Shown: positions 5,690 to 51,305 of the stretch, piece after piece | Layout: each line of letters opens with the position of its first letter | Position numbering within the stretch: the stretch's first letter is position 1 | NCBI GenBank assembly: GCA_041648665.1 | Contig: JBAZOP010000003.1 | Span: forward strand, 5,082 to 69,081 | Source of the DNA: a bacterium | GTDB taxonomy: Bacteria; UBA10199; 2-02-FULL-44-16; JAAZCA01 | Length of the DNA: 64,000 bases | Reading direction: 5' to 3' | Made by a program: the position numbers and the translations under genes | Notes under the pieces: generated by a model | Seen by the model: only the letters and a program-made list of their open reading frames with translations | What the model was told of the DNA's origin: nothing | Database searches by the model: none

Positions 5690-6523
5690 CTACGCCGCCT
5701 TCCTCCACAACTGATGGAGCAGGAAACCAACGATCGCTCCGCCGACAACAGCCGCGACCTTCGCGCTGCCCCCACCCTTAGCGAACACCAGCTCACCGCG
5801 CGCCCACGGGGCCAGCAGCGTGCGCCACACGGCCTCCTGGCACTCGTTGGCTTGGTAGATGTGCGCCTGCTTGTCGTCGGGCGGGAAGTCCGGTGGGTAC
5901 ACGCCCAGGATGAACAGCGCACCGATCCCAATCGCTTCCGCAACGGGGATGCCCAGGTCGATGTCGATCGGTTTCGCGCCCACGCTGTCGCCCAACGACA
6001 GGGCCGTCTCGCGCGTCCCTGGGTAGGTGGGCGGCAGGATCTTGGAGTGCGTGACGATCATCATCTTCTCGCCGCGCGACGCGCTGGAGGCGAAATCGAG
6101 CCAGTGCTGCCCAACCTTCGTGACCCTCCAGGTCTCGCCCTTCGCTCGCTCTGCGTACGAGGGCTGCGCGCCCTTCCACCCGCCGTGCATGCCATCCACC
6201 ACGTACAACGCGCTCACCGCATCGGAGTCACCCGTGTTCTTGATGATCTGTCCGATGCCCCAGCCGCCTGCGGAAAAGCCCACAAGTCCGATGAGCCCGC
6301 TCGGGTCTGCGCCATGCTCTTCGATGAACGGACGCAGGAACTCGCCACCGTGCGCGTCCTGGTAGTTCTTGACCCAGGCCTGATGGTTGTCCGAGCCCGC
6401 AGCAGAGACGGGGATCGACAGCACGACCGGGCGCACAGATTCGTCAGGCCACAGCTCGCTCAGAAGCGGTCCGCAGATCGTCGGCGTGCAGGAGAAGTCG
6501 GTGATCAAGATGGGGCGGGGCAT
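5690..6523 (-). CDS. alpha/beta-hydrolase fold serine esterase with C-terminal TM anchor
   Basis: Nucleophile elbow GFSAGG (GxSxG) followed by DGMHGGW. AGGAAG RBS before ATG 6523. C-terminal hydrophobic helix. Confidence 0.6.
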   Translation of the reverse strand: MPRPILITDFSCTPTICGPLLSELWPDESVRPVVLSIPVSAAGSDNHQAWVKNYQDAHGGEFLRPFIEEHGADPSGLIGLVGFSAGGWGIGQIIKNTGDSDAVSALYVVDGMHGGWKGAQPSYAERAKGETWRVTKVGQHWLDFASSASRGEKMMIVTHSKILPPTYPGTRETALSLGDSVGAKPIDIDLGIPVAEAIGIGALFILGVYPPDFPPDDKQAHIYQANECQEAVWRTLLAPWARGELVFAKGGGSAKVAAVVGGAIVGFLLHQLWRKAA

Positions 6524-6533
6524 GTGGGTCTTC

Positions 6534-6830
6534 CTACTTCCAGTCGAACGCCTTCACCCAGAAGTCCAGCCCGGGTCCGTTGCCGAACGTGTGCTGAAGC
6601 CTCCTCGTGACAGCTTCCTCACACGCGGAGAAATTCGGCCCTACGCAGTCGATGTTCACCATCGTCACCAGTTGGTCTTCGTGACCCTTCTGCTTGCTGA
6701 AGTCCATACCCTTCGCAAGTACGTCCTGCGGAGCCCAAGCGTCCACAAGTTGGTAGTAGCGCTTCGTCTCGGAGATGACGGAGCTTTCCACTCGAACAAC
6801 GCAGCGAATTTTGCCATCTGACATTTTCAC
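6534..6830 (-). CDS. hypothetical protein (98 aa)
   Basis: GTG start at 6830 with AAGGAG RBS 7 nt upstream. Confidence 0.45.
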   Translation of the reverse strand: MKMSDGKIRCVVRVESSVISETKRYYQLVDAWAPQDVLAKGMDFSKQKGHEDQLVTMVNIDCVGPNFSACEEAVTRRLQHTFGNGPGLDFWVKAFDWK

Positions 6831-6842
6831 GATCGTTCTCCT

Positions 6843-7781
6843 TCACCGCTGGTGCGTCTTGTCCGTCAGCGAGTCGTAGTGCTCACCTTTGTGGCCCTCG
6901 TGCAGCGTGCAATAGTGCCACCGGCTTCCCGCCTGCCACGCGAACTGGCAGCGGTTCGTGGGGTCCAGGAAGGAGTAGCCGTGGCGAGCGTTCGGGATCA
7001 GACGCTGCGTCGCATCGTCACACAGCGAGTCCATGTGCTGTCCACTGTGCCCCTTCTCCCTGGTGCACATAAACGTTCGCTTGCCGCTCTTCCACGTGTA
7101 CTCGCACCGATTTGGGGGCTTCCAGCCCTGCGCCTTGGGATCCGTCAAGCGACTGTAGGCGTTGGGTGCCGCCCGGCCTGACAGAAACGACTTCACTTCA
7201 TCCGGCGTGCCCTCGAAGATGCGGTGCCACGCGGGTTCGTCCGGTGCCGAAAGCTCGACGACCAGGATCGGAGCCCCACGCTTCTCGGACCAGTAGGCGC
7301 ACTTCTTCAGGATGCGGACCTTGGCACCGGGGAAGCCCGCGACGTTGACGCCGCGGGAGTCGGTCGCGAACTTCTCCGCTTCCTGCGCGACCGTGGCAGC
7401 CTTCAAGGCTTCGATGCGAGGCACAGCGGCTTGAACTACGCGAGCGCTGACGTGAGAGCGCTGGGGAGTCTCGTTGTGACAAGCGTTCTTCTTCGCCCAC
7501 GCGCTTGGTACTTCCTGTGCGAAAACCGTGTAGGACTTGCCAAGACGCTCAGACAGCCTGTCTCGCACAGCGGACTCGCAGGCTTTCTCGCTTGGGTCAG
7601 AGCACTCGACCACAACCTGTGTGATCTCTCTCTCGCCTTTCGTCGAACCCATCGGCGCGGTTGTCCGCAGATACGGATCTGCGCTCTTGATGTCTTCTCT
7701 CTTGAAACAATCAAGAATCATCTGCAAGTTGTGCTTATAACACCTGTTGAAAGGCTGCTCGATAACAACATAACAGATCAT
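6843..7781 (-). CDS. hypothetical protein with tandem Cys/His repeat modules
   Basis: Two tandem copies of R-C-x-(F/Y)-x-W-x-x-G-x-R-x-x-x-C-T-x-x-x-G-H-x-G-(E/Q)-H-x-D-S-L, a Zn-binding-like pattern. GGAG RBS before ATG 7781. Confidence 0.5.
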   Translation of the reverse strand: MICYVVIEQPFNRCYKHNLQMILDCFKREDIKSADPYLRTTAPMGSTKGEREITQVVVECSDPSEKACESAVRDRLSERLGKSYTVFAQEVPSAWAKKNACHNETPQRSHVSARVVQAAVPRIEALKAATVAQEAEKFATDSRGVNVAGFPGAKVRILKKCAYWSEKRGAPILVVELSAPDEPAWHRIFEGTPDEVKSFLSGRAAPNAYSRLTDPKAQGWKPPNRCEYTWKSGKRTFMCTREKGHSGQHMDSLCDDATQRLIPNARHGYSFLDPTNRCQFAWQAGSRWHYCTLHEGHKGEHYDSLTDKTHQR

Positions 7782-7789
7782 GACAACTC

Positions 7790-8587
7790 CTATATCGTCT
7801 CGACTTCAACCACCGGAGGGTTCCCCTCCCGATGCCCAACGATTCTCATTCTCCTGCCGAACAAAACCGTCTCCCTGTCATGCGCGGTAGGGGCGGCGAG
7901 GAGCCATTCCGAATGCTCTGTCGTCACAAACACATCCGTCGTCGGGCACGTCAGCTCTGCCACAACCGGGTTGCCGCGCACGACCGTCATCACGTGCTTG
8001 CCATACGCGTACTCTGTCGCCGCCTCAAACGATGGCGTCCACGACTCAAGAGGCCTCGTCTCGACAATCGTTCCGACCTTCGATGACAAGAGCTTGCCAC
8101 CGTGCGCGCTGTGAAGACCTCGGTACACGGTGATGGTCGGCTTCCCGATTTTAGCTACCGTCTCGTCCGAAACCGCCTTCATTGCCAAAGCGATCTTCCT
8201 CGGATCGTAGTCCTCTTTCGCACGCTCGCCCGTGAACATGTCTCGCGTCGCGATCTGCATCTTGCCGGTGTCGTAGTGGTAGATCACGGTCCTGCTAAGC
8301 GCTCCTCGCGGGTCCAGCGTGAACCGGAACGTGCCGTCTTCGTCGTCGTACGGAGCCCCCGGTGTATCTGCCCCGGTGGCAAGCCCGCTCGCTTTCGCAA
8401 TGCTCATCATCACGAGCGTCGGCTCGCAAACCGCAGACGCCCTCCACTGGCTGACCATGAACTCAAGGATCTGGCGCGTCACCGGGTCCGCAGACCAGTT
8501 GCGTCGCGCGCTTCGACTCCTTCGGCCAGCCATGCCCAGGATTCTACAACGACTCGCCAAATTCGACACGCGGCGCGACCCCGCCAT
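7790..8587 (-). CDS. hypothetical protein
   Basis: 265-aa ORF. The start may instead be the internal MAGRRS Met near 8533. Confidence 0.4.
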   Translation of the reverse strand: MAGSRRVSNLASRCRILGMAGRRSRSARRNWSADPVTRQILEFMVSQWRASAVCEPTLVMMSIAKASGLATGADTPGAPYDDEDGTFRFTLDPRGALSRTVIYHYDTGKMQIATRDMFTGERAKEDYDPRKIALAMKAVSDETVAKIGKPTITVYRGLHSAHGGKLLSSKVGTIVETRPLESWTPSFEAATEYAYGKHVMTVVRGNPVVAELTCPTTDVFVTTEHSEWLLAAPTAHDRETVLFGRRMRIVGHREGNPPVVEVETI

Positions 8588-14265: not shown

Positions 14266-16677
14266 CTACTCCTTAGCCGGCTCTTCCGGAGCCGCCTCCG
14301 CCTCGGGCTCCTTCTGCTGCTTGGCGATGAATTCCGCCTGCACCTTCATGAGCACGCGCCACACGTCGTCCAGGTAGCGCTTGCCCTTGCCGGTTGCCAG
14401 GACAGTCCCGCTGGTCGCCGGGTCACTGCGCAGGCTCGCGACAAACCTGTCCTTCTCGATGACCTGGGGAATCATCACGACGGTGCTCTCGCCGTTCTGC
14501 TCGATGAATGTCTTGACCAACACCTCGGGCGGCACCCTGTGAGAGCACGCCTCCTTGATCGTATTCACGAGCCCAGCAACCTGCTCGCGGTTGATCCCTG
14601 GGATCCAGTCGAACGAGGACCACGGCTCCTTCTTCGGCGCGACGTTCTGCTTGGCCGCGGGCTGCGACACGGGGGTGTCTGCCGCAACGGCCTGAGCCGC
14701 CGTCACAGGCCCCTGCGGAGCCTGTTCGATGACCACTGGCGGCGGGTACTGGGGCTGCTGCACGGGCTGCTGCGGGGCCTGCCGCATCGGCTGCTGCGTG
14801 ATGGACGGCTGCGTCATCGGGTTGAACGGGACCGGAGGCATGCCGGGACTGCGCGACGACATGCGGTTGTGCTCGTCTGCGCTCACCTGCGGCCCCGGCA
14901 GGTTGTCGAACGAAGACTGCACGGCTGGCCCCTCGCTGTCGGCGAACTGCACCCGGTGCACACGCCTGGGCGGAGGCAGCATCTGACGAGCCTGCTGCAC
15001 GGGAGGCACCTGCTGCACCTGCACCTGCTGCACAGGAGGACTACCCTTCTGGAGCAAGTCCTTGATCTGTGGGATCAGCGTGTCGGCCTGGGAGATGGCC
15101 ATGAGGATGGCCTTCTGATACCAAGGCGCGTTCGCCGCAGCCGCCGCCATCGCGGCCTCTTCTGGAGTCGGCCCGCCTTCCTTCTCGTCTGTCGCGATCC
15201 CGAGCGCAACGGCGGTCTCCCGAAGCTCCTGCACCTTGTTCAGAAGCGGCTTGTTCTGCTCCGCGAGGTGGGCGTTGACGAGCTGCGCCTTGCTCTGGAG
15301 ATCCGCCACCGTCGCGGCAAGCTGGTTCTGAAGCGCGCGCACCTCGAATCCGTGCGCCGCATCGAGCGTCGTCTTGGTGTTCGTCTCGACCGCCTCGCGC
15401 ATACGCGTTTCGCGATCGTGACTGCGCTGGATGTCGTCGAGCCGCTGTTGCCCGATGCGCTGCGCTTCTTCCATCGACCGCTTGTGCTCTTCGCGAAGGT
15501 AGCGCTCACGCCGATCGAAGTCGTCCTTCAGCTCGCGCTCCCGGCGTTCGATGATCGTATCCTTGTCGCGCATGCGATCTTCAAGTGAAGCAACACGGGT
15601 CTGCATCTCGGACCGAACGCGCTCGACCTCGCGCTCCTTCTCTCTCTTCTCGATCTCGATCAGCCGCTCGAACTCCCGCTGCCTCATCTCCATCTCGCGT
15701 GCGTGCTGCTCCTGCACCGCGCGCATGTCATCGGAGTTCGCCCCGCCGCGCACCGACGAGTTGATCAGCGCAACGGCCTTGACCATCTCGACCATGTCGT
15801 TGGGCTTCTGGCCGATCTCGGCGATCTGCCTGCGCATCTCCATCATCTCGGCTTGCTTGGCTTCGAGCTGACGTTCCAGAAGCGCAACTTGCTGCTGCGC
15901 CATCTCCTTGGTCGAGTCGATCGCGCGCTCCTGCTGACGACCCATCACGCTGAAGACCGTATCGGGCAAGCCCTGCTGAGCCTGCTGCGGCCTGTTTGCC
16001 ATGCGCTCTGCGAAGCTCAGAAATGGCGCGTAGTCTTGCGGCTGCTGTTGCTGCGGCATCTGCATGCGCATGCCCGCGCCTCCGTAGGGGCTGCCACCAC
16101 CCGGGAACGTGAACACCATAGGTCCCTCACTACTCTCGCTGTCTGCGATCGGAAGGCTCTGCATGTTGGGATCGACAGGTACGGAGAACTCCGCAACGGC
16201 AACATCCACCAGCGCGGGAGGCCCGCCCATGTTCGAGCTGTCACCTTGCTCCATCACGCCGTAGACCCGGTACTTGTACCCGCCGTAGAGCCGCAAGAAC
16301 TCCTGCGTGCCGATCATCATGTTGTGCATGCCGACGATACCGGAAACGCGCTGGCGCTGCCCCGTGCCGGGATCGAGATGCCACTCGGGCTCGATGCGCT
16401 GTACGCGCAGCTTGCCGACCTTCCGGAGATCCGGGTACGCGCTGTACATCGTCTCAAGAGATGGGAACTTCGGCACGTTCATGCCGCCGCGGCGACGGCT
16501 GATCTCGGCACGCCGCTCGACATCCTCCATCGGCGCGCGCGACTCGGGAAGCGATCCCATGTCGATCCCGCCCATCGGATCGTACGAAGTAGCAGCAGGA
16601 CCGCCTGATCGACGGCGCGCGGGGAACGGGAGTTCGGGCAGCGGCTGTTCTTCAGCCGTCGTGGGTTCGTCGGCCAT
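14266..16677 (-). CDS. large coiled-coil, Gln/Pro-rich protein (scaffold-like or tape-measure-like)
   Basis: 803 aa. Central heptad-rich region (EMRRQIAEIG...RERELKDDFDRRERYLREEH). C-terminal region has PQQPVQQPQYPPP repeats. ATG preceded by GGTGAGGT and two copies of the 30-bp upstream repeat. Confidence 0.6.
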   Translation of the reverse strand: MADEPTTAEEQPLPELPFPARRRSGGPAATSYDPMGGIDMGSLPESRAPMEDVERRAEISRRRGGMNVPKFPSLETMYSAYPDLRKVGKLRVQRIEPEWHLDPGTGQRQRVSGIVGMHNMMIGTQEFLRLYGGYKYRVYGVMEQGDSSNMGGPPALVDVAVAEFSVPVDPNMQSLPIADSESSEGPMVFTFPGGGSPYGGAGMRMQMPQQQQPQDYAPFLSFAERMANRPQQAQQGLPDTVFSVMGRQQERAIDSTKEMAQQQVALLERQLEAKQAEMMEMRRQIAEIGQKPNDMVEMVKAVALINSSVRGGANSDDMRAVQEQHAREMEMRQREFERLIEIEKREKEREVERVRSEMQTRVASLEDRMRDKDTIIERRERELKDDFDRRERYLREEHKRSMEEAQRIGQQRLDDIQRSHDRETRMREAVETNTKTTLDAAHGFEVRALQNQLAATVADLQSKAQLVNAHLAEQNKPLLNKVQELRETAVALGIATDEKEGGPTPEEAAMAAAAANAPWYQKAILMAISQADTLIPQIKDLLQKGSPPVQQVQVQQVPPVQQARQMLPPPRRVHRVQFADSEGPAVQSSFDNLPGPQVSADEHNRMSSRSPGMPPVPFNPMTQPSITQQPMRQAPQQPVQQPQYPPPVVIEQAPQGPVTAAQAVAADTPVSQPAAKQNVAPKKEPWSSFDWIPGINREQVAGLVNTIKEACSHRVPPEVLVKTFIEQNGESTVVMIPQVIEKDRFVASLRSDPATSGTVLATGKGKRYLDDVWRVLMKVQAEFIAKQQKEPEAEAAPEEPAKE

Positions 16678-16829: not shown

Positions 16830-17282
16830 TCAGTTTGGTTCAGGCTCGTCGGGCTCTTCTTCGATGACGAGATCCTTGACACCCTCGATGACAGATTCAC
16901 CAAGCTCGATGAGATCGGCGAGCTGCGCAGCGATCGGAAGCCCCTGCTTCTTGGACTCCGCATGCTGCGCCTTGAAAATCTCAACGGCCTTCTCGACGAA
17001 GGCGAGGATCTTGTCGGCGTCTTCCTGTTCGAGCTGGCTCGCGCCTTCGGCCTCTTCGAGATCCGCGATCGCGTCTTCGTGGCGCACAACGGCGGCGGCG
17101 CACACTCGCACGTCTTCGGCCAGCATCTTGAGGTTCGGCAGAAGATCATCCTGGATGAAGTCGTGCAGATCGCGAGACCCCTCGTCGGTCTTCACGTCGT
17201 TGTCGATCTTCTTCGCGAGCTTGTCGAGATTCTCCAGCACCATGTCGATCTTCAGCACATCGCCTTCGGTCTCGTCACTCAT
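16830..17282 (-). CDS. hypothetical highly acidic protein
   Basis: 150 aa rich in D/E (coiled-coil-like). Confidence 0.5.
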   Translation of the reverse strand: MSDETEGDVLKIDMVLENLDKLAKKIDNDVKTDEGSRDLHDFIQDDLLPNLKMLAEDVRVCAAAVVRHEDAIADLEEAEGASQLEQEDADKILAFVEKAVEIFKAQHAESKKQGLPIAAQLADLIELGESVIEGVKDLVIEEEPDEPEPN

Positions 17283-17922
17283 CGGTCACCTCTTGGAACT
17301 CATCCTTGTCGAGAACCTTCTTGCCCGCTTCCACATCTTCCTTCGTCTTGAACATGCGGTAGCCCTTGATCTTGCGCGGAGCCTCGCGATCGCCAGAGCC
17401 CGCGCCCTCGACGATGACGCGCGCCTTGCCGATCTCGATCTTCTCCGCGTCGATCGCGTCCAGCACGTTCGTCGCCGCGGGATCAGGCGGATCGCGGAAC
17501 TCGCAATCGAAGATGGCCGAGTCCTTCAGACACATCGCTGCGCCATTGATACCGCGAAGCGCTTCGACGGTGCAGAACCGCTCGATGAGCGCAAGGTCGG
17601 GAATGTCCGGGCTGATCACGCGCTGCCTCTTGTAGAAGCGGCACTTACCGAGCCGGGTCAACCGGCCCTTCTTTGGATCTGGCTCTTGTTCCAGACACGA
17701 GAACGTTTGCGGGCACAGCGGAGGAGGAAGTGCCTGAGAGAAGGTCCACGGCGGATCCTTCTCGATCGGCATACCGTCCGGTCCGTCTCGGTACTCGGGC
17801 TGCGCAGGCCGGAATTGCTCGAAGATGCTGCCGCCGGGAGTCGGGCTTCCGGTTTCAGTCTCCTCTTCGTCGGCTTGTTCTGCTAGTGTCTCGTCCTGTT
17901 CGATCGTGGGGTCATCAGCCAT
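17275..17922 (-). CDS. hypothetical protein with acidic N-terminus
   Basis: Begins MADDPTIEQDE, similar to MADEPTTAEEQ at the start of 14266-16677. Two copies of the 30-bp repeat lie upstream. Confidence 0.5.
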   Translation of the reverse strand: MADDPTIEQDETLAEQADEEETETGSPTPGGSIFEQFRPAQPEYRDGPDGMPIEKDPPWTFSQALPPPLCPQTFSCLEQEPDPKKGRLTRLGKCRFYKRQRVISPDIPDLALIERFCTVEALRGINGAAMCLKDSAIFDCEFRDPPDPAATNVLDAIDAEKIEIGKARVIVEGAGSGDREAPRKIKGYRMFKTKEDVEAGKKVLDKDEFQEVTDE

Positions 17923-17964
17923 GACGCACGTTGTCGCAGGAAACGCACAGCGTGTCAACGACGA

Positions 17965-18291
17965 TTAGGGGGTGCCTGTTTTCCCGGAGGTTGCGGATAT
18001 CGGCCCGCACGCCGTTGGTTGATCGCCATGATCCTCGTTGATACGTCGCACGATACCTGCGAGTTGCGGATATCGGCCCGCACGCCGTTGGTTCTTGAGG
18101 CGCAGTATCCTCTTCGGGCGATAGCCGCAGCACAGATCGCACACGAGGAACGAGGGTTCCTTCACGGTCGAGCCCTTCAGATAGGGACCAGCGTAGAGCG
18201 TGGGGACGACGCGCCCGCACCACATGCACGGGCGATCGGGCACAACGTCGAAAGGTTCCCACTGCACGGGGATTTTGGGCCAGTGGCTCAT
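17965..18291 (-). CDS. possible small Zn-ribbon protein (doubtful)
   Basis: MSHWPKIPV...CMWCG...CDLCCGY. The 3' part runs through the non-coding 30-bp repeats, so the extent is uncertain. Confidence 0.2.
   Translation of the reverse strand: MSHWPKIPVQWEPFDVVPDRPCMWCGRVVPTLYAGPYLKGSTVKEPSFLVCDLCCGYRPKRILRLKNQRRAGRYPQLAGIVRRINEDHGDQPTACGPISATSGKTGTP
17991..18093 (-). promoter_or_regulatory. two further copies of the 30-bp element, 73 bp apart, upstream of gene 17275-17922
   Basis: 17991-18020 and 18064-18093 are identical copies TTGCGGATATCGGCCCGCACGCCGTTGGTT. A TTGACA hexamer lies between the repeat and the start. Confidence 0.5.
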
Positions 18292-18471
18292 GATGGGCCA
18301 GATGGTATCGCAGGGTCGTATAGTTGGCAAGGGGATGTGATGACAAATAGAGGACGCGCGGCACCAAGTGAGGGGGGGAGGACTCGGTCTGCCGCGCGCC
18401 AGATTTCGGCCCAAGGTCGCGATGCGTCTTCGTGGGCCTGAACGGTAGGGTATGCGCAACGGCCCCGCCCG

Positions 18472-18678
18472 TCAACTGTCGTCCACTTCCCACGTCCGAA
18501 CAATGGTGCTGCCGCAGGGGCAGTCCCGGTACTCCATCGCTTCGCCCCAGTCGAATACCGTGTAGCCGACCAAGTGGAGCTTCTGCCACTGGGCTTCGGT
18601 GTAGAGCTTGCCGCACGGGCACCGCTTGGGCATCGGGTCCAGGAGCTTGCCGAGGCGGATTGCGGGTGTCGTTGCCAT
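18472..18678 (-). CDS. small zinc-ribbon protein
   Basis: 68 aa with CPCG...CPCG. ATG is 6 nt after the stop of the NlpC/P60 gene. Confidence 0.5.
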   Translation of the reverse strand: MATTPAIRLGKLLDPMPKRCPCGKLYTEAQWQKLHLVGYTVFDWGEAMEYRDCPCGSTIVRTWEVDDS

Positions 18679-18684
18679 CTTCGA

Positions 18685-19257
18685 TCAGCCAAAGCGTCCG
18701 AGCGAGAACCCGGCTGTCCCCGCACGACGCCCCTCCGCGATGTCGGCAAGCGAGCAGAACCCCAGAAATCTCGTATCTACGCGGTGATCCGGGACTCGTT
18801 TGACAACCGCTCCGCGCTCCTGCGCGACCTCCGGGCTTGTCACGTCCACGTCGCCGTTCTGCGCGCCAATGCACGCTGCTCGCCCTTCGGGCGGGTACCA
18901 CTTCTCGACCAGCATGATGTGGACGGCCTTCTGTGCGCTTCCGAAGAGGGCAACGTCCCCTGGGGTGGGCTCCACAACCTGCGGAAGAGCATGCCAGATC
19001 GCGTTCGAGTTCATCTCCATCTCGAACCCGGCAGCGCGCGCGCAGTCGATGATGAGCCCCGAGCAGTCCAGGCCCCACGAGCTTACGCCCGCGTGCCCTC
19101 CGCCCCACTGGTAGAGCGTCCCAGCCTTCACATGCTCATCGGCGCGAGCAAGCATTGCCTTGCGCCACGGGGCCAGATTGGAGGCTCCCACGCGGCTCGC
19201 GTACACGATCGCTACGATGGCTGCGATGCCGAGAGCCCACGGAAGCGCGGGGTTCAT
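18685..19257 (-). CDS. NlpC/P60 (CHAP-like) cell-wall peptidase with N-terminal signal-anchor
   Basis: GLDCSGLI catalytic Cys motif with downstream His (AVHIM). N-terminal TM (WALGIAAIVAIVYA). Endolysin candidate. Confidence 0.6.
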   Translation of the reverse strand: MNPALPWALGIAAIVAIVYASRVGASNLAPWRKAMLARADEHVKAGTLYQWGGGHAGVSSWGLDCSGLIIDCARAAGFEMEMNSNAIWHALPQVVEPTPGDVALFGSAQKAVHIMLVEKWYPPEGRAACIGAQNGDVDVTSPEVAQERGAVVKRVPDHRVDTRFLGFCSLADIAEGRRAGTAGFSLGRFG

Positions 19258-19544
19258 CCTTGTCTTCCGCCTAGATACAAGTTCATGTCGCCGTGCTCAC
19301 CGTGCAGCCGGTACGGCATCTTGCCCTCCGCGATGAGCTTCATCCTCCAGATCGCCAACCACAGCAGCACGCCGACGAAGCCGACGACGACTACGCCCAC
19401 AATGGCCTTGGTCGCCGTGGAGGTCTCCTTCGCGCAACGGGGCTGGCCGTTCAGGTAGTACAAGGACTGCCCGGGTGGGCAGCTGGCCTGGGCGACCGTA
19501 GGCGGGTCCGCGCTGAGAGAGTGGGGGCGGGTAACCTGGATCAT
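19254..19544 (-). CDS. small single-TM protein (holin-like)
   Basis: 96 aa with TM (IVGVVVVGFVGVLLWLAIW). Immediately upstream of the peptidase, with start/stop overlap. Confidence 0.4.
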   Translation of the reverse strand: MIQVTRPHSLSADPPTVAQASCPPGQSLYYLNGQPRCAKETSTATKAIVGVVVVGFVGVLLWLAIWRMKLIAEGKMPYRLHGEHGDMNLYLGGRQG

Positions 19545-19567
19545 GCTGCCATCCTACCTCAACCGTC

Positions 19568-20005
19568 TCAAGCCACCAACTTGAGCCGCGCCCTGAACAG
19601 CCGGTTCTTGGTGGTCGAGTCGTTGGCCGCATCGGTCCCAAGCACGGCATCGACGATGGCGCTCCGATCCACAACGGGCATGGCGTCAACCTGCTTCAAC
19701 ACGCTAAGCAGTCTCGCCCGCGCCTCGATGAGGCTGTCGATGGTGCAGCTGGTCTCGAACTCGGGGACCACAACGGCGGCATGTCGGCAGCGGTCCCGCT
19801 TCACTTCGAGGCACTTCATGATGACGATGTGGTGCAGCCACGTGCTGACCTTGCACCTGCCATCGAAGGGAGCCGTGAGCGCCTTGATGAACGCCCACTG
19901 CACAATGTCCTCCGCATCCTCGCGGCTGGCCATGATGCGCTGCGCGGCAGCGACGAGCCGCGCCCGGTGCGCCCTGCATTCCCGATCCAACGCCTGCCTG
20001 TCCAT
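19568..20005 (-). CDS. ECF-type sigma-70 family RNA polymerase sigma factor
   Basis: Region-2-like EDAEDIVQWAFIKAL...STWLHHIVIMKCLEVKRDR and region-4-like AVLGTD...NRLFRARLKL. Preferred start is MDRQAL. Confidence 0.55.
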   Translation of the reverse strand: MDRQALDRECRAHRARLVAAAQRIMASREDAEDIVQWAFIKALTAPFDGRCKVSTWLHHIVIMKCLEVKRDRCRHAAVVVPEFETSCTIDSLIEARARLLSVLKQVDAMPVVDRSAIVDAVLGTDAANDSTTKNRLFRARLKLVA

Positions 20006-20399
20006 CGGACAACCGATGGTAAGCACGCGCCGCGCCGCTTGCAAGAGTCGCCGCGCGCATGGATACATGATCGAGCGTTCCGACGTTCCTACGATCCATA
20101 TCCTCTCATACGAGGTCGCGTCAGCGTTGTGGTAAATGCAAGCTCAACCCAAGCGCCTTCCGATCTCGCAGGCGAGGATCATGCTTTAGCGTTCTGGGTG
20201 AAGCAGAGGCTTCGATCCAACCATCCCGCTGAAGCGGCGTCCTCCCCTTCCGATGCCATCCTCTCGGAACGAGGATACACATATCACCAACTGATCCAGA
20301 TCCCGATTCGAGGAAACACCTCGGTCTCATCCAAACGTTCGTACCCTACGGGCACTCACTGGGAACACGAAGCGTTATGGCGAATCGGGAAATACGCCA

Positions 20400-21560
20400 C
20401 GACGTAAGGTAGATCCCTATTAGGCCAGAAAATGGATGGGGTCCACAAGTGAAAAGTGAACGTAGCGTGCCACGATTTCAAAATAGGTAGCATAATGTGA
20501 GCGCTATACACACAAAGCGCGCGACGGATTGGTTGATAGCTGGAAGCGTTCTAGTCGGGCTCGATCGCGATGGGATCGACGGGGCCTCGGCGCAAGGCTT
20601 CGGTCAATAGAACGGGCGCGAATTTATCGATCGCCACGTCCATCCCAATACCGATGCAGGCGTATCCAGGGAGCCATACGTCCGACTGGTTGAACCCGAA
20701 CTTGATTTGCAACTGCTTGGACGTGAGCGACTTGCAGTGGCTGATGAAGTTCAGAACGTTCGTTCCTATCGACGGAGATATGACGAGTTCGACCATGTTT
20801 CTGGTCACCGCTCCGGAATTGATGAGAACGCTGTCTGGTCTTTGTTGTCGGACGATGCTTCTGATGAGTTCCTTGTGCTCCATCTCGAAGACTGTAGGAG
20901 GCTTTGCTCGCCAGCAAATCCACAACGGGTTGTAGTAGAACGACGCTCTTTCGGAGTTGACGAGGTTCGACATGTCCGATGGATCCGGGCATCGTCGATA
21001 GAAAATCGTCCAGTCGTACGGCTCCTCTGGCGTAAATCCACTTCGTTTCAAAAGAGCAATGATCTCTGGCCCGGGAGCAAACCACTCTCCTCTGATTCTG
21101 TAGTGCGCAAAAACACGATGGAATTTGTGCTCCGTTTCAACGCCACCGGCAATGACTCCGACGACATTCAACTCCCATGGACACCCGGTCTGTATCTCGT
21201 TCTGACGGCTTTTCGCCGTTCCTGTTGTCGTCCCGATTTTGATTGGTCCACCCCCGGGAATTTGCATGAAGTAAACGCTCATAATGGCATGGTAGCCACG
21301 CATTAGGAGCATCTCAAGCTATCTCTCTCTACTCTGAGTGACACGTAACGTAGTGCCACGCATCGCCACGCATTCAACCTGATGTGCGTGATGTCACGGA
21401 CAGAAAATCATCGGTAAACAGGCTCGAAATGATTGACTGAACGGGCGTGGCTGCGTATCGTAGACGGTCCAGGCACAACGAGCGGGAGATAGTTGCAATG
21501 GCTACTGCAAGGTCAACGTGTCTCGACAGAAAGCCGCAAAAACATCCATGGGACGAGGGA
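20400..21560 (-). mobile_element. low-GC island carrying the GIY-YIG gene, flanked by direct repeats AACGTAG(C)GTGCCACG (about 20461 and about 21346)
   Basis: Base composition drops sharply relative to the flanks. A near-identical 15-16-bp direct repeat lies on both sides of the gene. Confidence 0.4.
20551..21312 (-). CDS. GIY-YIG family nuclease (T5orf172-like homing endonuclease)
   Basis: N-terminal VYFMQ...GGPIKIGTTT...RQNEIQTG...EHKFHRVFAHYRIRGEWF matches the GIY-YIG / T5orf172 pattern. The gene sits in a distinctly AT-richer island. Confidence 0.6.
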   Translation of the reverse strand: MLLMRGYHAIMSVYFMQIPGGGPIKIGTTTGTAKSRQNEIQTGCPWELNVVGVIAGGVETEHKFHRVFAHYRIRGEWFAPGPEIIALLKRSGFTPEEPYDWTIFYRRCPDPSDMSNLVNSERASFYYNPLWICWRAKPPTVFEMEHKELIRSIVRQQRPDSVLINSGAVTRNMVELVISPSIGTNVLNFISHCKSLTSKQLQIKFGFNQSDVWLPGYACIGIGMDVAIDKFAPVLLTEALRRGPVDPIAIEPD

Positions 21561-21580
21561 GGTGAGGCTCCTGCCCGTGG

Positions 21581-22663
21581 GTGGCGTCGATGACCCCCGA
21601 TCGTCTTGAGCTAGCCGTCCAGGTCATACGTCGTCTCAACCCCCATCCAGGCCGCTTCGCCTGCTACGTCCACCAGCGCAACCAGTACGTTCAGGTTCGC
21701 CGCGCCCCCACCGATCAAGAGGTGGTCGAGCACATACGCGGGCGTCGCCTGCTCGGAGCCGTGAGCGCAGACGACCAGGGGATGACGACAGCCGTGGGGC
21801 TGGATCTGGACGCACACGTGTCCGGTCAGCGCCCGTTGGCTGCGGCCAAGCGCTTCGTGCAAGCGTGTCAGGTGTTCGACATCCCGGTGCTCGTGCACAC
21901 CAGCAAGAGCGCCAAGGGCTGCCACGTCCGCACGCTGTTCAACAAGGAGACGCCCAGCTGGATGGCGCGAGCGATGTACGTCGCCCTCGCCGTCTCGTCC
22001 GACCTGAACCAGGACAGCGCCTGCGACAAGGTATGGCCACCGTCACATGGCTATGGGGTGCTCGCTCTGCCGTACCAGGGGCGGTACGCGGTGCAGAACG
22101 GCGGCACCATCGCTCTGAACCCGAACACGTGGCTCCCGTACCCGCAGGACGTGCAGCTCGACGTTGTGACCGAAGCCCGGGAGATGGACACCGACGACAT
22201 CGAGGGGGTGCTGCGCACCTTCGGTATCAACACCGAACGGCAGGCGAAGCTGCTGGCAGGAGCGGCCTTGAGCGGCCCCACGGAGCCGTCGTGCCGCGAT
22301 GGGACAGATGGCGGCGTGCAGGAGATGATCAACCACTGCGCCGCCGTGAAGCGGCTGGAGGAGGAGGCTGGGACCGTCCCGTACGTTTTCTGGTTCGGGA
22401 TGATGACCAACTTCCGCCCCTTCGCAAACGGCAGGGAGCTGTTCGAGGCGTATTGTGAGCTTGACCCAAAGCGTCACGATCCAAGGGCGCTAGACCGGAT
22501 GTGGAAGGCGATCACGGGGAGGCCTAGGATCTGCCTTCACCTTGACCCTCAGTGGACATGTCCGCTTCAGGGCAGGTGTCCCGCGAATGCCCCAGCCGGG
22601 TTGCCGTTCGCGGTCAAGAGAGCGCAGAAGAAGCGGGAGCAGGGCGACAAGAGCGAGGGGTAA
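21581..22663 (+). CDS. archaeo-eukaryotic primase (AEP) superfamily primase-polymerase
   Basis: GLDLDAH (DxD metal site) and VLVHTSKSAKGCHV (sGxGxH-like motif III). C-terminal Cys cluster CPLQGRC. GGGAGGTGAGG RBS upstream. Confidence 0.55.
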   Translation: MASMTPDRLELAVQVIRRLNPHPGRFACYVHQRNQYVQVRRAPTDQEVVEHIRGRRLLGAVSADDQGMTTAVGLDLDAHVSGQRPLAAAKRFVQACQVFDIPVLVHTSKSAKGCHVRTLFNKETPSWMARAMYVALAVSSDLNQDSACDKVWPPSHGYGVLALPYQGRYAVQNGGTIALNPNTWLPYPQDVQLDVVTEAREMDTDDIEGVLRTFGINTERQAKLLAGAALSGPTEPSCRDGTDGGVQEMINHCAAVKRLEEEAGTVPYVFWFGMMTNFRPFANGRELFEAYCELDPKRHDPRALDRMWKAITGRPRICLHLDPQWTCPLQGRCPANAPAGLPFAVKRAQKKREQGDKSEG

Positions 22664-22690: not shown

Positions 22691-23293
22691 ATGGCCAAAG
22701 GGAGACGTGTCAGCGCACATAGCGACACAGGCGTAGGGCACAAATCGACACAGACGGCAGAAGGTGGCTCACAAGGTGCCGAAAGTGGTGCCAAACTGTT
22801 CGATGGTCAGGCACAGTTTGTCACTGATGACATTTCTGAGCCAACAAATGAGCCACCTGTGCCTATCCAGTCGGATTCTGGTGACAATGTTGGCCAATCT
22901 GAGCCAGAAGTGACAAATGGGCCAGAATCGACTGAGCCAGTGGCACGCAGGTACAAGGACTGGGTGTCGGGTCCTCTGATTTGCCCCAAATGCGGCCTGA
23001 ACGAGCGCGCCTTCGGTATGAGGTGGTGCCGGGCCTGTAGAGCTGCTTACATGCGCGCAAACAGGCCAAAATACTCGGAATTGTCCGAAGAAGAGCGCCG
23101 ACGTAGTTGCTGTAGGTCATATACACACACGTTGATCAAGAGGGGCCAGTTGCAGAGGGAACCGTGTATTCGCTGCGGGTCTCCGTACGCGCAAGCCCAC
23201 CATCCTGACTACTCGGATCCAAGGAACATCGTTTGGATGTGCCGGGAATGTCACCTGCTTCTGCACGGAGTTTTGTTTGGAGGCCACCTATGA
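22691..23293 (+). CDS. Zn-ribbon plus HNH endonuclease
   Basis: ICPKCG...WCRACR followed by CIRCGSPYAQAHHPDYSDPRNIVWMCRECHLLLH (C-H-H-N-C-H HNH pattern). The N-terminal 100 aa are low-complexity. Confidence 0.6.
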   Translation: MAKGRRVSAHSDTGVGHKSTQTAEGGSQGAESGAKLFDGQAQFVTDDISEPTNEPPVPIQSDSGDNVGQSEPEVTNGPESTEPVARRYKDWVSGPLICPKCGLNERAFGMRWCRACRAAYMRANRPKYSELSEEERRRSCCRSYTHTLIKRGQLQREPCIRCGSPYAQAHHPDYSDPRNIVWMCRECHLLLHGVLFGGHL

Positions 23294-48872: not shown

Positions 48873-51305
48873 ATGGCACGAGGAAGGATTTTCCGGATCA
48901 CGAAGGCCCAGGCAAAGGCCTACGAAATCCTGGATCCGCCCTCGACGCGCTCGGCCCGCCCGAACCCAGGCGTCACGGCCATCATGGGGATCACCAACGG
49001 TCGCGGAGCTGCGAAGCGCGGGGCTCGCAAGGGCAAGGCTCGCAAGTCGGTCCGCATGCTCGGCGGCATCAGCTGCCCCAAGACGGCTCCGAAGAAGCAC
49101 CGCATGGCAGGGGCGACGAAGCGCTCAGACTACGCGCTGCCGCAGTGCTTCCACTACCCGGTGCGCACGCGCGGCAAGGCTTCCGTCTTGAAGATCCGGC
49201 GAGCCCTGACCCGCTACGGCACGCACAAGAGCAGGTACTCGCCCGCCGTCCGCAGGCAGATCGAGCGCGGGATCGCGAAGGCTGCGAAAGAAGCCGGGAT
49301 GACGAGTCCCGTGGCGATGAAGTACCGCAAGAAGTTCGCACTGGCGAATGCAAAAGGAGAAAGCCCCATGTTCGTCGTCCCCAATGCCGCGCGCAAGCGC
49401 GCAAGGCGCAAGTCCAAGTCGCGCAAGCTGTCCCCGGCTCATGCCTTCTTCTTGTACCCGACCACCAAGGGCAAGATCGGCGCGTCGGCGTCCCCGAACC
49501 GCAAGCGCAAGGCGCGCAAGGCCCGGAAGGGTGCTCGCAAGCTGAAGTTTGGCTCGCCCGCATGGCAGAAGAAGTTCAACCCGCTGTACGGCGGCAAGGG
49601 CAAGACGCGCAAGGGCAAGAAGTCGACTGCCAAGCGTCGGACCGCGCGTCGGATGGTTACGTCGGGCGTTCGTCGCGTGACCGTTCGTCGTGGCAAGGGC
49701 AAGCGCCGCAGCGGTCTGAGCGTCGCTCTGCGCAACATGTCGATCCTTCCTGCGGTGCCGAACAAGCGTCGCCGCTCGACCAAGAAGTACAGCGCCGCGT
49801 GGCATCGCAAGATGACGCATGCGGTCGCGAACCGCTATCGTCGGCGCGCTCGGCGCAACGCAGAGGGCGAGGGGATCTTCTTCCCGGGCGAGGGCGGAGG
49901 TTCGTTCATGGACGAGCCCTCCACCATCATGTCCGAGGCGCAGGAGAAGAAGCTCGCTGCTGCCGCCACTGCCGAAGGCATCGCTCAAGACATGTTCAAG
50001 ACTCAGGCGGATTTCGACGCGTGGTTCGCGAACATGTACAAGAGCAAGACGTTCCGCAAGTTCTACATGTCATTCAGACGAAGGCGCACTGCGCTCTCCA
50101 AGCGAGGTAGGAAGATGGCAACCAGGAAGAAGGGCAAGAAGGCTGCGGGCCGCAAGCCTCGCAAGGGCAAGAAGGCTCGCAAGGCACGCAAGGGAACCCG
50201 CAAGCTGAAGTTCGGCTCGCCCGCATGGCGCAAGAAGTACGCGCGCAAGATCGCGGCGGGTCGGCGCAAGGCGAAGCGGCACGGCACGCGCAAGGCTGCG
50301 AAGCGTCGCAAGAGCGGCTCGCGCAGCAAGCGCCGGGTCACGCGTCGTCGAGGCACCGCACGTCGTCGGAGCGCAGCGCGCCGCCGCACGGGTGGTCGTA
50401 GGCTCAAGTTCGGCTCGAAGGCGTACAACAAGAAGTACGCGGCCAAGCGCAAGCGCAACCTTCGGTCGGCGAAGCGTCACGGCAAGCGCAGGGCTCGCCG
50501 GAACTTCAGCTTCCGTGCCATCCCGAACCAGCTGCTCATGCGCGTCAAGGCCATGGCGATCCCTGGGCTCATCGCGCTCGGTGGCTACGCCATCCATCGC
50601 GTTGTGACCAAGGTTCTGTCCAAGGCCATCGGCGGCACGGTCACGAGCTACGCCGAACCCCTGAGCGGGCTCGTCGCGATCGCGGCTGGCACCTGGGCGG
50701 TTGGCAAGTTCCTGCCGCAGCACTCTCATGCTGCGATCATGGGCATGGCCGTCAGCTTCGGCGCGTTGCTCCTCAAGAGCTTCCTGCCCGACGTTGCGAC
50801 CTACCTGGGCATGGGCTCGGTCGGATCGCAGAACCAGCGCGTGCGCTGGGGCATGCAGGGACCGGAGTTCATGCAGGCGGCTGCTGGCCCGGAGTTCATG
50901 CAGGCGGCTGCTGGCCCGGGGTTCCTCCAGGCGGCTGCTGACTACTACCAGCCCGCGAGCGGGATCGGCGAGTACGTCAGCGATGGTTCGCTCTCTCCCG
51001 TGAGCGACTTCGGCGAGTACGTCGCGAGCAATCTCGACGTGAGCGGCTGGGGTGACTACGAGGTGAGCACCCAGTACCAGACCGGCGCGGACGGCTACGG
51101 AGCCATCAACGACGGGATCCAGCCGGGCGGCAATCTCGATCAGCAGTTCAACATCATGGAAGCGGCGGCGGGGCTCGGTCTGAACAGCCCCGGCAGCTCG
51201 TCCACCTACGTCCCGCACGAGGGCATGCGCAACGTGGCCTCTGCGGAATCGAGCGACAGCTCGGGCGTGTTCGATGTCGGCGGAGGCAACGGCGTCCTGG
51301 GCTGA
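48873..51305 (+). CDS. 810-aa polybasic (protamine/histone-like) repeat protein with TM segments and an acidic C-terminal domain
   Basis: The first ~550 aa are extremely Lys/Arg-rich, with three ARKARKGxRKLKFGSPAW(Q/R)KK(F/Y)-type repeats. These are followed by hydrophobic helices and then GPEFMQAAAGPEFMQAAAGPGFLQAAA repeats in an acidic tail. The 30-bp element lies 10 nt upstream. Confidence 0.6.
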   Translation: MARGRIFRITKAQAKAYEILDPPSTRSARPNPGVTAIMGITNGRGAAKRGARKGKARKSVRMLGGISCPKTAPKKHRMAGATKRSDYALPQCFHYPVRTRGKASVLKIRRALTRYGTHKSRYSPAVRRQIERGIAKAAKEAGMTSPVAMKYRKKFALANAKGESPMFVVPNAARKRARRKSKSRKLSPAHAFFLYPTTKGKIGASASPNRKRKARKARKGARKLKFGSPAWQKKFNPLYGGKGKTRKGKKSTAKRRTARRMVTSGVRRVTVRRGKGKRRSGLSVALRNMSILPAVPNKRRRSTKKYSAAWHRKMTHAVANRYRRRARRNAEGEGIFFPGEGGGSFMDEPSTIMSEAQEKKLAAAATAEGIAQDMFKTQADFDAWFANMYKSKTFRKFYMSFRRRRTALSKRGRKMATRKKGKKAAGRKPRKGKKARKARKGTRKLKFGSPAWRKKYARKIAAGRRKAKRHGTRKAAKRRKSGSRSKRRVTRRRGTARRRSAARRRTGGRRLKFGSKAYNKKYAAKRKRNLRSAKRHGKRRARRNFSFRAIPNQLLMRVKAMAIPGLIALGGYAIHRVVTKVLSKAIGGTVTSYAEPLSGLVAIAAGTWAVGKFLPQHSHAAIMGMAVSFGALLLKSFLPDVATYLGMGSVGSQNQRVRWGMQGPEFMQAAAGPEFMQAAAGPGFLQAAADYYQPASGIGEYVSDGSLSPVSDFGEYVASNLDVSGWGDYEVSTQYQTGADGYGAINDGIQPGGNLDQQFNIMEAAAGLGLNSPGSSSTYVPHEGMRNVASAESSDSSGVFDVGGGNGVLG

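Follow-up and report, generated by a model that had tools for sequence, protein, structure and literature searches.

A putative freestanding GIY-YIG homing endonuclease gene with a candidate transposase-derived targeting domain beside the primase gene of an uncultured phage-like genome

How did a single nuclease gene come to lie in the most GC-poor part of a phage-like genome, and what do the short repeats around it stand for? The question is raised by a locus on contig JBAZOP010000003.1 (positions 5,082 to 69,081; this stretch of 64 kb is called the window). The window appears to be an uncultured phage-like genome, in which the genes point to the left up to ∼20 kb and to the right from ∼21.6 kb. 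In the original prediction the locus was described as a low-GC island carrying a freestanding homing endonuclease gene and bounded by direct repeats that are candidate remnants of the target site. The analysis described here retains the gene and revises the role of the repeats. The open reading frame (ORF) at 20551-21282 on the minus strand is probably a freestanding, selfish gene of the homing endonuclease type, which belongs to the T5orf172/MUG113 branch and carries a probably transposase-derived targeting domain, and the repeats are best read as protein-binding sites in a control region and not as insertion scars.

The nuclease gene and its two domains

The predicted drop in base composition between ∼20.1 and 21.6 kb was confirmed. 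GC content is 0.51-0.55 across ∼20.07-21.58 kb (0.53 overall, the lowest of the window), compared with 0.62-0.67 on either side, and the lowest 1-kb bin of the window lies at 20001-21000 (0.542 versus a window mean of 0.630). As predicted, the tract contains one convincing ORF only, the nuclease gene at 20551-21282, and it is located between a sigma factor gene of the extracytoplasmic function (ECF) type on the left and a replication module, consisting of an archaeo-eukaryotic primase (AEP) gene and an AAA_25 helicase gene, on the right. From the NCBI start at 21282 the nuclease gene encodes 243 amino acids (aa), with alternative upstream starts at 21303 and 21312 (ORF 20551-21312); it is uncertain which start codon is used, and a clear ribosome-binding site was not seen in the sequence. 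Its product is 100% identical to P0001, which is named 'GIY-YIG nuclease family protein' by NCBI. The GC content of the gene (0.531) is the lowest total value among the ORFs examined. Its GC content at third codon positions (GC3) is 0.652, versus 0.795 ± 0.057 (z = -2.5) in a reference of 69 non-overlapping ORFs that were picked by a crude GC3-GC2 filter and may include spurious ORFs.

The N-terminal 85 residues (21028-21282, minus strand) matched the Pfam family PF13455 (MUG113, GIY-YIG clan, T5orf172-like) with an E-value of 9.8e-12 and 45.7 bits against a cut-off of 22.3. An exhaustive HMMER search (phmmer) of 1.84 billion cluster representatives, which stand for ∼15 billion proteins, identified 15,853 relatives of this domain. 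GIY-YIG domains are recognized by a tyrosine in the first strand ('GIY'), the 'YIG' box, a central arginine and a C-terminal glutamate (PMC1564403). The corresponding residues Y4 (in VYF), K15-I-G, R26 and E66 (in GEWF) are present. In an alignment of nine sequences, Y4, G11-G17 including K15, R26, E51, H55 and E66-W-F were invariant across homologs, and the nuclease keeps them all. The second canonical tyrosine is absent and replaced by lysine, as in every aligned relative.

The fold of the superfamily consists of a three-stranded sheet and three helices. The domain was modelled by AlphaFold2 (AF2) with a confidence score (pLDDT) of 92 and the order beta-beta-alpha-beta-alpha-(beta)-alpha. 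When compared with BFVD, the model gave 53 matches at E <= 1e-3, with template modelling (TM) scores of 0.74-0.82 to viral MUG113/T5orf172/GIY-YIG proteins. Foldseek searches of the PDB with the full-protein and the N-domain models gave no significant matches, and scans with PADLOC and NCBIfam models returned nothing informative. The Pfam match and the comparison with BFVD support the assignment of the gene as a predicted nuclease of the GIY-YIG/T5orf172 type.

The second part of the protein, approximately aa 115-222 (20617-20940, minus strand), probably has the Y1-HUH fold (HUH, histidine-hydrophobic residue-histidine) of IS200/IS605 TnpA transposases in a catalytically inactive form. The Pfam family PF01797 (Y1_Tnp, IS200-like) was matched below threshold in both the window protein and its only full-length homolog (see below), with E-values of 0.014 and 0.0013 and 16.0 and 19.3 bits against a cut-off of 23. 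A profile of these two sequences, compared with 177,635 PDB sequences, matched ISDra2 TnpA alone (E 0.009-0.02) over nearly its full length. Alignment of the profile by hhalign to 11 annotated TnpA proteins gave a probability of 88.8% (E 2.5e-6), compared with 0.2-0.4% for unrelated C-termini of other family members that served as negative controls. Because these three independent, weak to moderate signals agree in the same register, the domain is read as TnpA-like.

In these alignments the catalytic residues are not kept. The HUH motif is replaced by M-V-E in the window protein and by R-A-E in the homolog, and the position of the catalytic tyrosine is occupied by phenylalanine in both; the best PDB match of the domain is likewise a Y132F mutant chain (2XO6). 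The domain itself is conserved between the two homologs (E 1e-21). Since the HUH histidines and the catalytic tyrosine are both lost, it would serve for DNA recognition only, and it is quite likely that it represents a catalytically dead TnpA-like fold used for this purpose. The protein is without the CxxC motifs or zinc fingers of described T5orf172 modules.

A fusion of a GIY-YIG/T5orf172 nuclease with a TnpA-like domain was not found described in the searchable literature. A further-reaching proposal, which is put forward tentatively, is that the protein may be an undescribed hybrid of a T5orf172 nuclease and a dead IS200/IS605 TnpA targeting module. It would recognize a GTGNCAC-TACGTT element (described below), possibly when this is single-stranded or extruded during replication beside the primase gene. 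Such a protein would stand beside the transposon-derived homing systems as their protein-only counterpart, and it would show a new way for homing endonucleases to gain specificity.

Presence and absence of the gene among relatives

Searches of 50,697 phage records by megablast and tblastn gave nothing useful, the sole match being the N-domain in Rhizobium phage RHph_I1_23, and IMG/VR, scanned with primase, nuclease and a helicase alignment as queries, yielded no match. In a large metagenome collection, primase homologs with 42-86% identity were identified in 26 protein clusters. The nuclease had just one full-length homolog among the 1.84 billion representative proteins, P0044, with 254 aa, 38% identity and an E-value of 3e-42. 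On its contig, L014, the arrangement mirrors that of the window: the gene is divergent from an AEP primase gene with a spacer of 288 bp, and a gene-free tract of 511 bp follows downstream. The primase of L014 is 46-48% identical to that of the window, and the GC3 of its nuclease gene is 0.635 versus 0.72-0.84 for the neighboring genes.

The nuclease gene is absent upstream of the primase gene in eight relatives (L001/2, L003, L006, L007, L010, L027, L029 and L030), and in a primase tree the two carriers, the window and L014, fall into the two different major clades. One of the relatives without the gene, L010, is a sister of L014 (77-84% nucleotide identity, primase 95% identical). Here 0.83-0.89 kb in L014 correspond to 65-100 unrelated bp in L010, and the breaks in the alignment fall ∼40 bp ahead of the start codon and ∼25-85 bp after the stop codon of the nuclease gene. 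The comparison with relatives thus yielded an indel tight around the ORF and eight genomes without the gene; the pattern expected for a target duplication failed (see below). When the flanks in the window were aligned locally to those in L014 with gap-friendly scoring, the scores were at chance level or close to it (p = 0.02-0.4), and these alignments were not used.

These data support a mobile or dispensable cassette that occupies a single fixed site beside replication genes. Its occurrence at one site, its sporadic presence, the polymorphism between sisters and its foreign composition lead to the reading as a selfish, site-specific cassette. Of the original prediction, the identification of the gene and its description as foreign and mobile stand, whereas the repeats and the island boundaries had been misread.

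T5orf172 is a GIY-YIG subfamily of phage homing endonucleases in which the nuclease lies at one terminus, is combined with swappable DNA-binding modules and is encoded near essential genes (PMC10448857). Glutamate-dependent activity has been published for one T5orf172 protein, and homing-type nuclease genes typically cluster around replication genes (PMC10448857). Double-strand-break repair is the route by which freestanding endonuclease genes move; it makes no target duplication, and the enzymes cut hundreds to thousands of bp away from their own gene (PMC2988022). The gene in the window lies in the large low-GC control region between the leftward late, lysis and sigma genes and the rightward primase-helicase operon. 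Its N-terminal 85 residues form the nuclease module, and the C-terminal ∼110 residues are most probably a targeting module derived from an IS200/IS605 TnpA. The protein would cut the genome of a competitor lacking the cassette near the primase gene, and recombinational repair would then copy the cassette in, as in intronless homing.

The repeats and the weighing of explanations

The predicted near-identical direct repeats on either side of the gene are present. The left copy, AACGTAGCGTGCCACG (20459-20474; CGTGGCACGCTACGTT on the minus strand), has a GTGCCAC core at 20467-20473 and lies 77 bp past the stop codon, and the right copy, AACGTAGTGCCACG (21347-21360), lies 65 bp upstream of the start at 21282. 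The pattern AACGTAG[CG]TGCCACG is unique to these two copies within the window. They differ by a 2-nt CG indel and not by one C as had been stated. The similarity between the flanks is borderline, as 7.1% of 2000 dinucleotide shuffles scored as high in the local alignment (p ∼0.07).

The right copy is part of a larger cluster in the divergent control region between the nuclease and primase genes (21283-21589, GC 0.54). This region contains hexamer pairs that resemble sigma70 promoters, at 21317-21289 in leftward and at 21433-21461 in rightward direction. The stretch 21338-21360 comprises the right copy and two palindromic GTGNCAC cores 15 bp apart (GTGACACGTAACGTAGTGCCAC), and GCCACGCAT occurs in three exact copies on the plus strand at 21295, 21355 and 21365 (span 21295-21373), the last two in tandem with a 10-bp period. 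No exact copies of GCCACGCAT were found elsewhere in the 64 kb, and when the region was shuffled, any 9-mer in at least three copies was obtained in just 1.8% of cases. The window has fewer GTGNCAC sites than expected (15 found versus 23 expected), and three of the 15 occurrences are located at 20467, 21338 and 21353. The right copy is thus part of a denser array, which goes part of the way towards the origin-type iteron array named as a refutation in the original prediction. GCCACGCAT is spaced by 60 and 10 bp at 220-290 bp upstream of the primase gene; the units are short and there are three only.

The motif is shared with a relative. The minus-strand 15-mer GTGGCACTACGTTAC (21345-21359) is matched 15/15 at positions 1905-1919 of L010, in the gap upstream of the primase gene, and this is its only other exact match in 194 kb comprising the window and the related loci (∼4e-4 expected by chance). 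The window DNA around GTGGCACTACGTTAC could not be aligned to the surroundings in L010. In L014 an orthologous copy (12/15) and a second 12/15 copy abutting the nuclease stop codon were identified, neither of which is significant alone. Nothing comparable was found in the primase-upstream gaps of the other relatives, so that the motif is restricted to carriers of the nuclease gene and to the sister of a carrier. Judged from these comparisons, the motif is a real conserved cis-element with a palindromic GTGNCAC core, and such a core fits a dimeric DNA-binding protein. Most likely, the GTGNCAC-TACGTT motif and the GCCACGCAT cluster are binding or operator sites, as predicted here, of the nuclease or of a phage regulator. 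Whether the motif would act as a site in the cleavage region or as an operator of the gene's own promoter is a guess, for which either role is reasonable by analogy.

Two other readings of the repeats were rejected. The consensus of sigma-54 promoters is GG-N10-GC, and TGGCAC does not fit it in spacing or in the -12 box; the L014 variant is also without GG. The left copy makes a weak intrinsic terminator, with a 5-bp stem that includes a G-T pair and is not conserved in the right copy.

Several points weigh against the favored account. The match of the N-domain to solved GIY-YIG structures is weak, I-TevI (1mk0) being found at rank 19 with an E-value of 5.2 and a TM score of 0.39. The TnpA-like call depends on a profile of just two sequences and on Pfam scores under the cut-off. 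With single sequences the hhalign probability was 15% and 32%, in unchanged register, and the AF2 model of the full protein left the C-domain unmodelled from two sequences (pLDDT 30-40). Hairpins of the kind used as TnpA substrates were not found consistently over the five motif sites, and the full motif has opposite orientations relative to the gene in the window and in L014.

On the side of mobility, no close relative of the window genome with an informative upstream flank was present in the searched collections; the contig of L008 (primase 85% and helicase 82% identical at the aa level) ends 120 bp upstream of the primase gene. The difference between L014 and L010 may be a gain in L014 or a loss in L010, either way. 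Remnants of the nuclease ORF in L010, which would indicate a loss, were plausible by eye and not significant (p = 0.15 and 0.47). An ancient gene that was inherited vertically and lost repeatedly could also account for the distribution, because the two nuclease copies (36-38% identical) are more diverged than their primases (46%).

The alternative that survives best, although it is rather unlikely, is a domesticated, locus-specific DNA-binding or nicking protein that regulates the divergent promoters or nicks an origin for the adjacent primase-helicase, with GTGNCAC and GCCACGCAT as operators or iterons and without homing. HUH-fold proteins are classic origin binders, the GC-skew minimum is located here, and two deeply diverged genomes have the gene in equal position and orientation beside the primase gene. 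The divergent promoter-like sites enclose the motif cluster, and one of the GCCACGCAT copies directly adjoins the -10-like hexamer of the nuclease gene. In addition, T5orf172-family proteins have been domesticated as repressors (CapR) (PMC10448857) and I-TevI represses its own promoter (PMC2988022). However, the eight relatives without the gene, including the sister with a 95% identical primase, manage the same primase-helicase module without it. GC3 is low in both carriers and the invariant residues of the nuclease family are all kept. Furthermore, the array consists of three short repeats only, no clear AT-rich unwinding element was found near them, and the relatives are without these repeats.

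It is less probable still that the gene is a decaying or inert passenger, a horizontally acquired 'moron' without present activity, and that the repeats are due to chance or to unrelated regulation. The borderline repeat statistics, the scarcity of full-length homologs, the uncertain start codon and the lack of a clear ribosome-binding site would fit such a passenger. On the other hand, two lineages have an intact ORF (36-38% identical), both domains are conserved, the family-invariant residues are kept, and the 15/15 match in L010 is far beyond chance.

The original version, a recent homing endonuclease insertion in which the repeats of 14 and 16 nt are target remnants or duplications that mark the ends of the island, is improbable in the light of the relatives. 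The repeats bracket the ORF and span 902 bp, which is near the size of the L014/L010 indel, and their pattern is unique in the window. But homing by double-strand-break repair makes no target duplication and freestanding enzymes cut far away (PMC2988022), and the flanks reach p ∼0.07 only. Nor is the island bounded by the repeats: GC stays low outside them (0.556 beyond the left copy and 0.559 beyond the right one), and the edges of the low-GC tract coincide with the sigma gene and the primase gene.

The primase-upstream gaps of relatives without the gene are gene-poor as well (0.8-1.6 kb), with a GC content below the genome average in the five gaps measured. Non-coding control regions in GC-rich genomes are usually low in GC, and part of the low GC is a property of the control region itself and not of the inserted gene. 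The indel junction in L010 is separated by 220 bp or more from the only motif copy, and L014 has its two copies on the 3' side of the ORF and shows no significant repeat common to the two flanks (p = 0.14). Because the duplication model fails in both genomes, the repeats are not regarded as target-site duplications.

Finally, a cassette of the IS200/IS605 type that moves by single-strand 'peel and paste', with the repeats as left and right ends seen by the TnpA-like domain, is hardly credible: the C-domain resembles TnpA and the repeats are direct and subterminal, as the ends of IS200/IS605 elements are, but the replacement of HUH and catalytic tyrosine in both homologs largely refutes it, consistent hairpins are missing at the motif copies, the gene is single-copy per genome with two proteins of this architecture among the 1.84 billion representatives, and the motif arrangement differs between the window and L014.

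The surroundings of the gene and comparison with known systems

The left neighbor, an ECF-type sigma factor gene (19568-20068, minus strand; GC 0.645, GC3 0.83), matched Pfam Sigma70_r2 with an E-value of 4.4e-10, region 2 being the only part identified by Pfam, and NCBIfam ECF-type sigma models, every one under its curated cut-off. The NCBI start at 20005 gives 145 aa, and P0037 is identical to the product. In a collection of 5.8 billion proteins it had no homolog with more than 32% identity over at least 69% of the query; one partial match has 41% identity over 34% of it. Between this gene and the nuclease stop codon, a gene-free low-GC tract of 545 bp (20006-20550, GC 0.53-0.56) holds only short ORFs with GC3 of 0.50-0.56. 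A noncoding RNA was considered for this gap and rejected, as there was no Rfam or tRNA match and the folding z-scores were -1.1 and -1.45. At 20150-20390 several short stem-loops with perfect pairing follow one another (among them GAAGC-AGAG-GCTTC at 20201, ATCCTC...GAGGAT at 20255 and CGAGG-AAACA-CCTCG at 20311), enclosed by a 10-bp perfect pairing of TCCCGATTCG (20301) with CGAATCGGGA (20381); its overall folding energy is no better than that of shuffles.

On the right, the AEP-type primase gene (21590-22663, plus strand; Pfam AEP-TOTE 6e-12, product identical to P0010) is the conserved anchor of the locus. It is followed by an ORF for an HNH-type endonuclease (22691-23293, plus strand; 200 aa, phrog_2340 at 4e-10, motif HHPDY...CRECH) with a GC content of 0.55 and a GC3 of 0.552 (z = -4.2), and then by the AAA_25 helicase gene. 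The HNH gene is thus a second atypical nuclease gene that co-occurs with the GIY-YIG gene on the other side of the primase gene, and both look foreign by composition. None of the relatives has the HNH gene, and in L008 its place is taken by an N-terminal helicase extension of 190 aa that is acidic/Ser-rich. As every relative has the helicase gene directly after the primase gene, the HNH gene is specific to the window genome and is a cleaner lineage-specific insertion of a nuclease gene than the GIY-YIG gene. In L014 two adjacent AAA_25 genes follow the primase gene (6202-6927 and 6975-8318), compared with one in the other relatives, which could reflect a split or duplicated helicase.

The stretch from a conserved gene (homolog of window 17275-17958) to the primase gene is a plasticity zone, as was seen when 17958-21590 was compared with L003, L006, L007, L010, L014, L027, L029 and L030. 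The cargo differs per relative: NlpC/P60, a 96-aa ORF and the orphan ECF sigma factor in the window, RadC in L014 and L003, and small uncharacterized ORFs in other relatives. In L030 a sigma-70 gene lies downstream of the helicase gene instead. Long, near-perfect inverted repeats were observed in the gene-free gaps ahead of the primase gene in two relatives: the gap of L002 (∼224-610) contains one with 80-nt arms of 96% identity and a 386-nt imperfect palindrome, and L006 has 88-nt arms of 95% identity at 6292-6380 and 6756-6842, ∼380 bp apart. They could be origin-like, invertible-segment-like or similar to miniature inverted-repeat transposable elements; they have no Rfam match, and nothing comparable was found in the window.

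L010 (673-1191, minus strand) and L014 (13108-13623, plus strand) also encode, within the plasticity zone, a conserved protein of 171-172 aa with a D...E-V-K pattern (GDFDLRVNGMIVEVKSR) reminiscent of PD-(D/E)xK nucleases and no Pfam match. In the window, a 9-mer cluster scan showed that large ORFs contain clustered short tandem repeats, in frame, of the CTGCTGC and GCAAGGGCA types at 14753-15025, 49594-49695 and 50874-50932.

The low-GC tract beside the primase gene thus appears in this uncultured phage group as a hot spot of cargo turnover, where a GIY-YIG nuclease gene, an HNH gene, RadC, sigma factors and inverted-repeat elements are found. Freestanding nuclease genes show where the limits of genetic exchange between phages lie, and their targeting modules set which genomes are attacked. 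If the C-domain is truly an inactivated Y1 transposase, it would be a new module beside zinc fingers, helix-turn-helix, AP2 and RepA_N domains, and a rare case in which a transposase fold is reused by another selfish element purely for DNA recognition. The locus supplies a defined candidate protein together with a candidate DNA site.

The closest known systems are the T5orf172 homing endonuclease genes of ICP1, T5-like and other phages (Barth, Dunham and Seed 2023, PMC10448857). The protein described here belongs to the same nuclease family, with a fold TM of ∼0.8 to viral members, and likewise has the nuclease at one terminus and a separate region for DNA recognition. The genes are also alike in their intergenic location beside replication genes, their variable presence among related phages and the co-occurrence of an HNH-type gene. 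In contrast, 87% of the described members carry CapR, DUF723 or DUF4397 zinc-finger modules, whereas a probable inactivated TnpA-like domain is found here. In Odn, the origin-directed nuclease of phage ICP1 (eLife 2021, PMC8263062; described in PMC10448857), a T5orf172 nuclease is similarly fused to a DNA-binding domain from a DNA-processing protein of another mobile element; there, however, the module is a RepA_N replication-initiator domain aimed at a satellite origin, and not a transposase-like module.

I-TevI and the Seg endonucleases of phage T4 (PMC2988022) share the order of an N-terminal GIY-YIG domain, a linker and a C-terminal DNA-binding domain, and the seg genes likewise stand free in intergenic regions, with conserved genes as neighbors. 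The binding of I-TevI to an operator at its own promoter (PMC2988022) is a possible analogy for the motif cluster at 21290-21400. Differences are the second tyrosine ('YIG'), which is lysine here as in all T5orf172 proteins, the weak structural similarity to I-TevI (TM score 0.39) and the unrelated DNA-binding module. ISDra2 TnpA (PDB 2XM3, 2XO6) is collinear with the C-domain over ∼85-105 residues of the 140-residue enzyme, including the HUH strand and the W-x-[PS]-x-Y/C segment. Unlike IS200/IS605 TnpA, the domain has M-V-E or R-A-E in place of HUH and phenylalanine in place of the catalytic tyrosine and is fused to a nuclease, and unlike IS200/IS605 elements the locus is single-copy and lacks hairpin ends and a TnpB partner. 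By these residues, the protein is not a transposase; it is rather to be compared with the T5orf172 homing endonucleases, from which its probable targeting module sets it apart.

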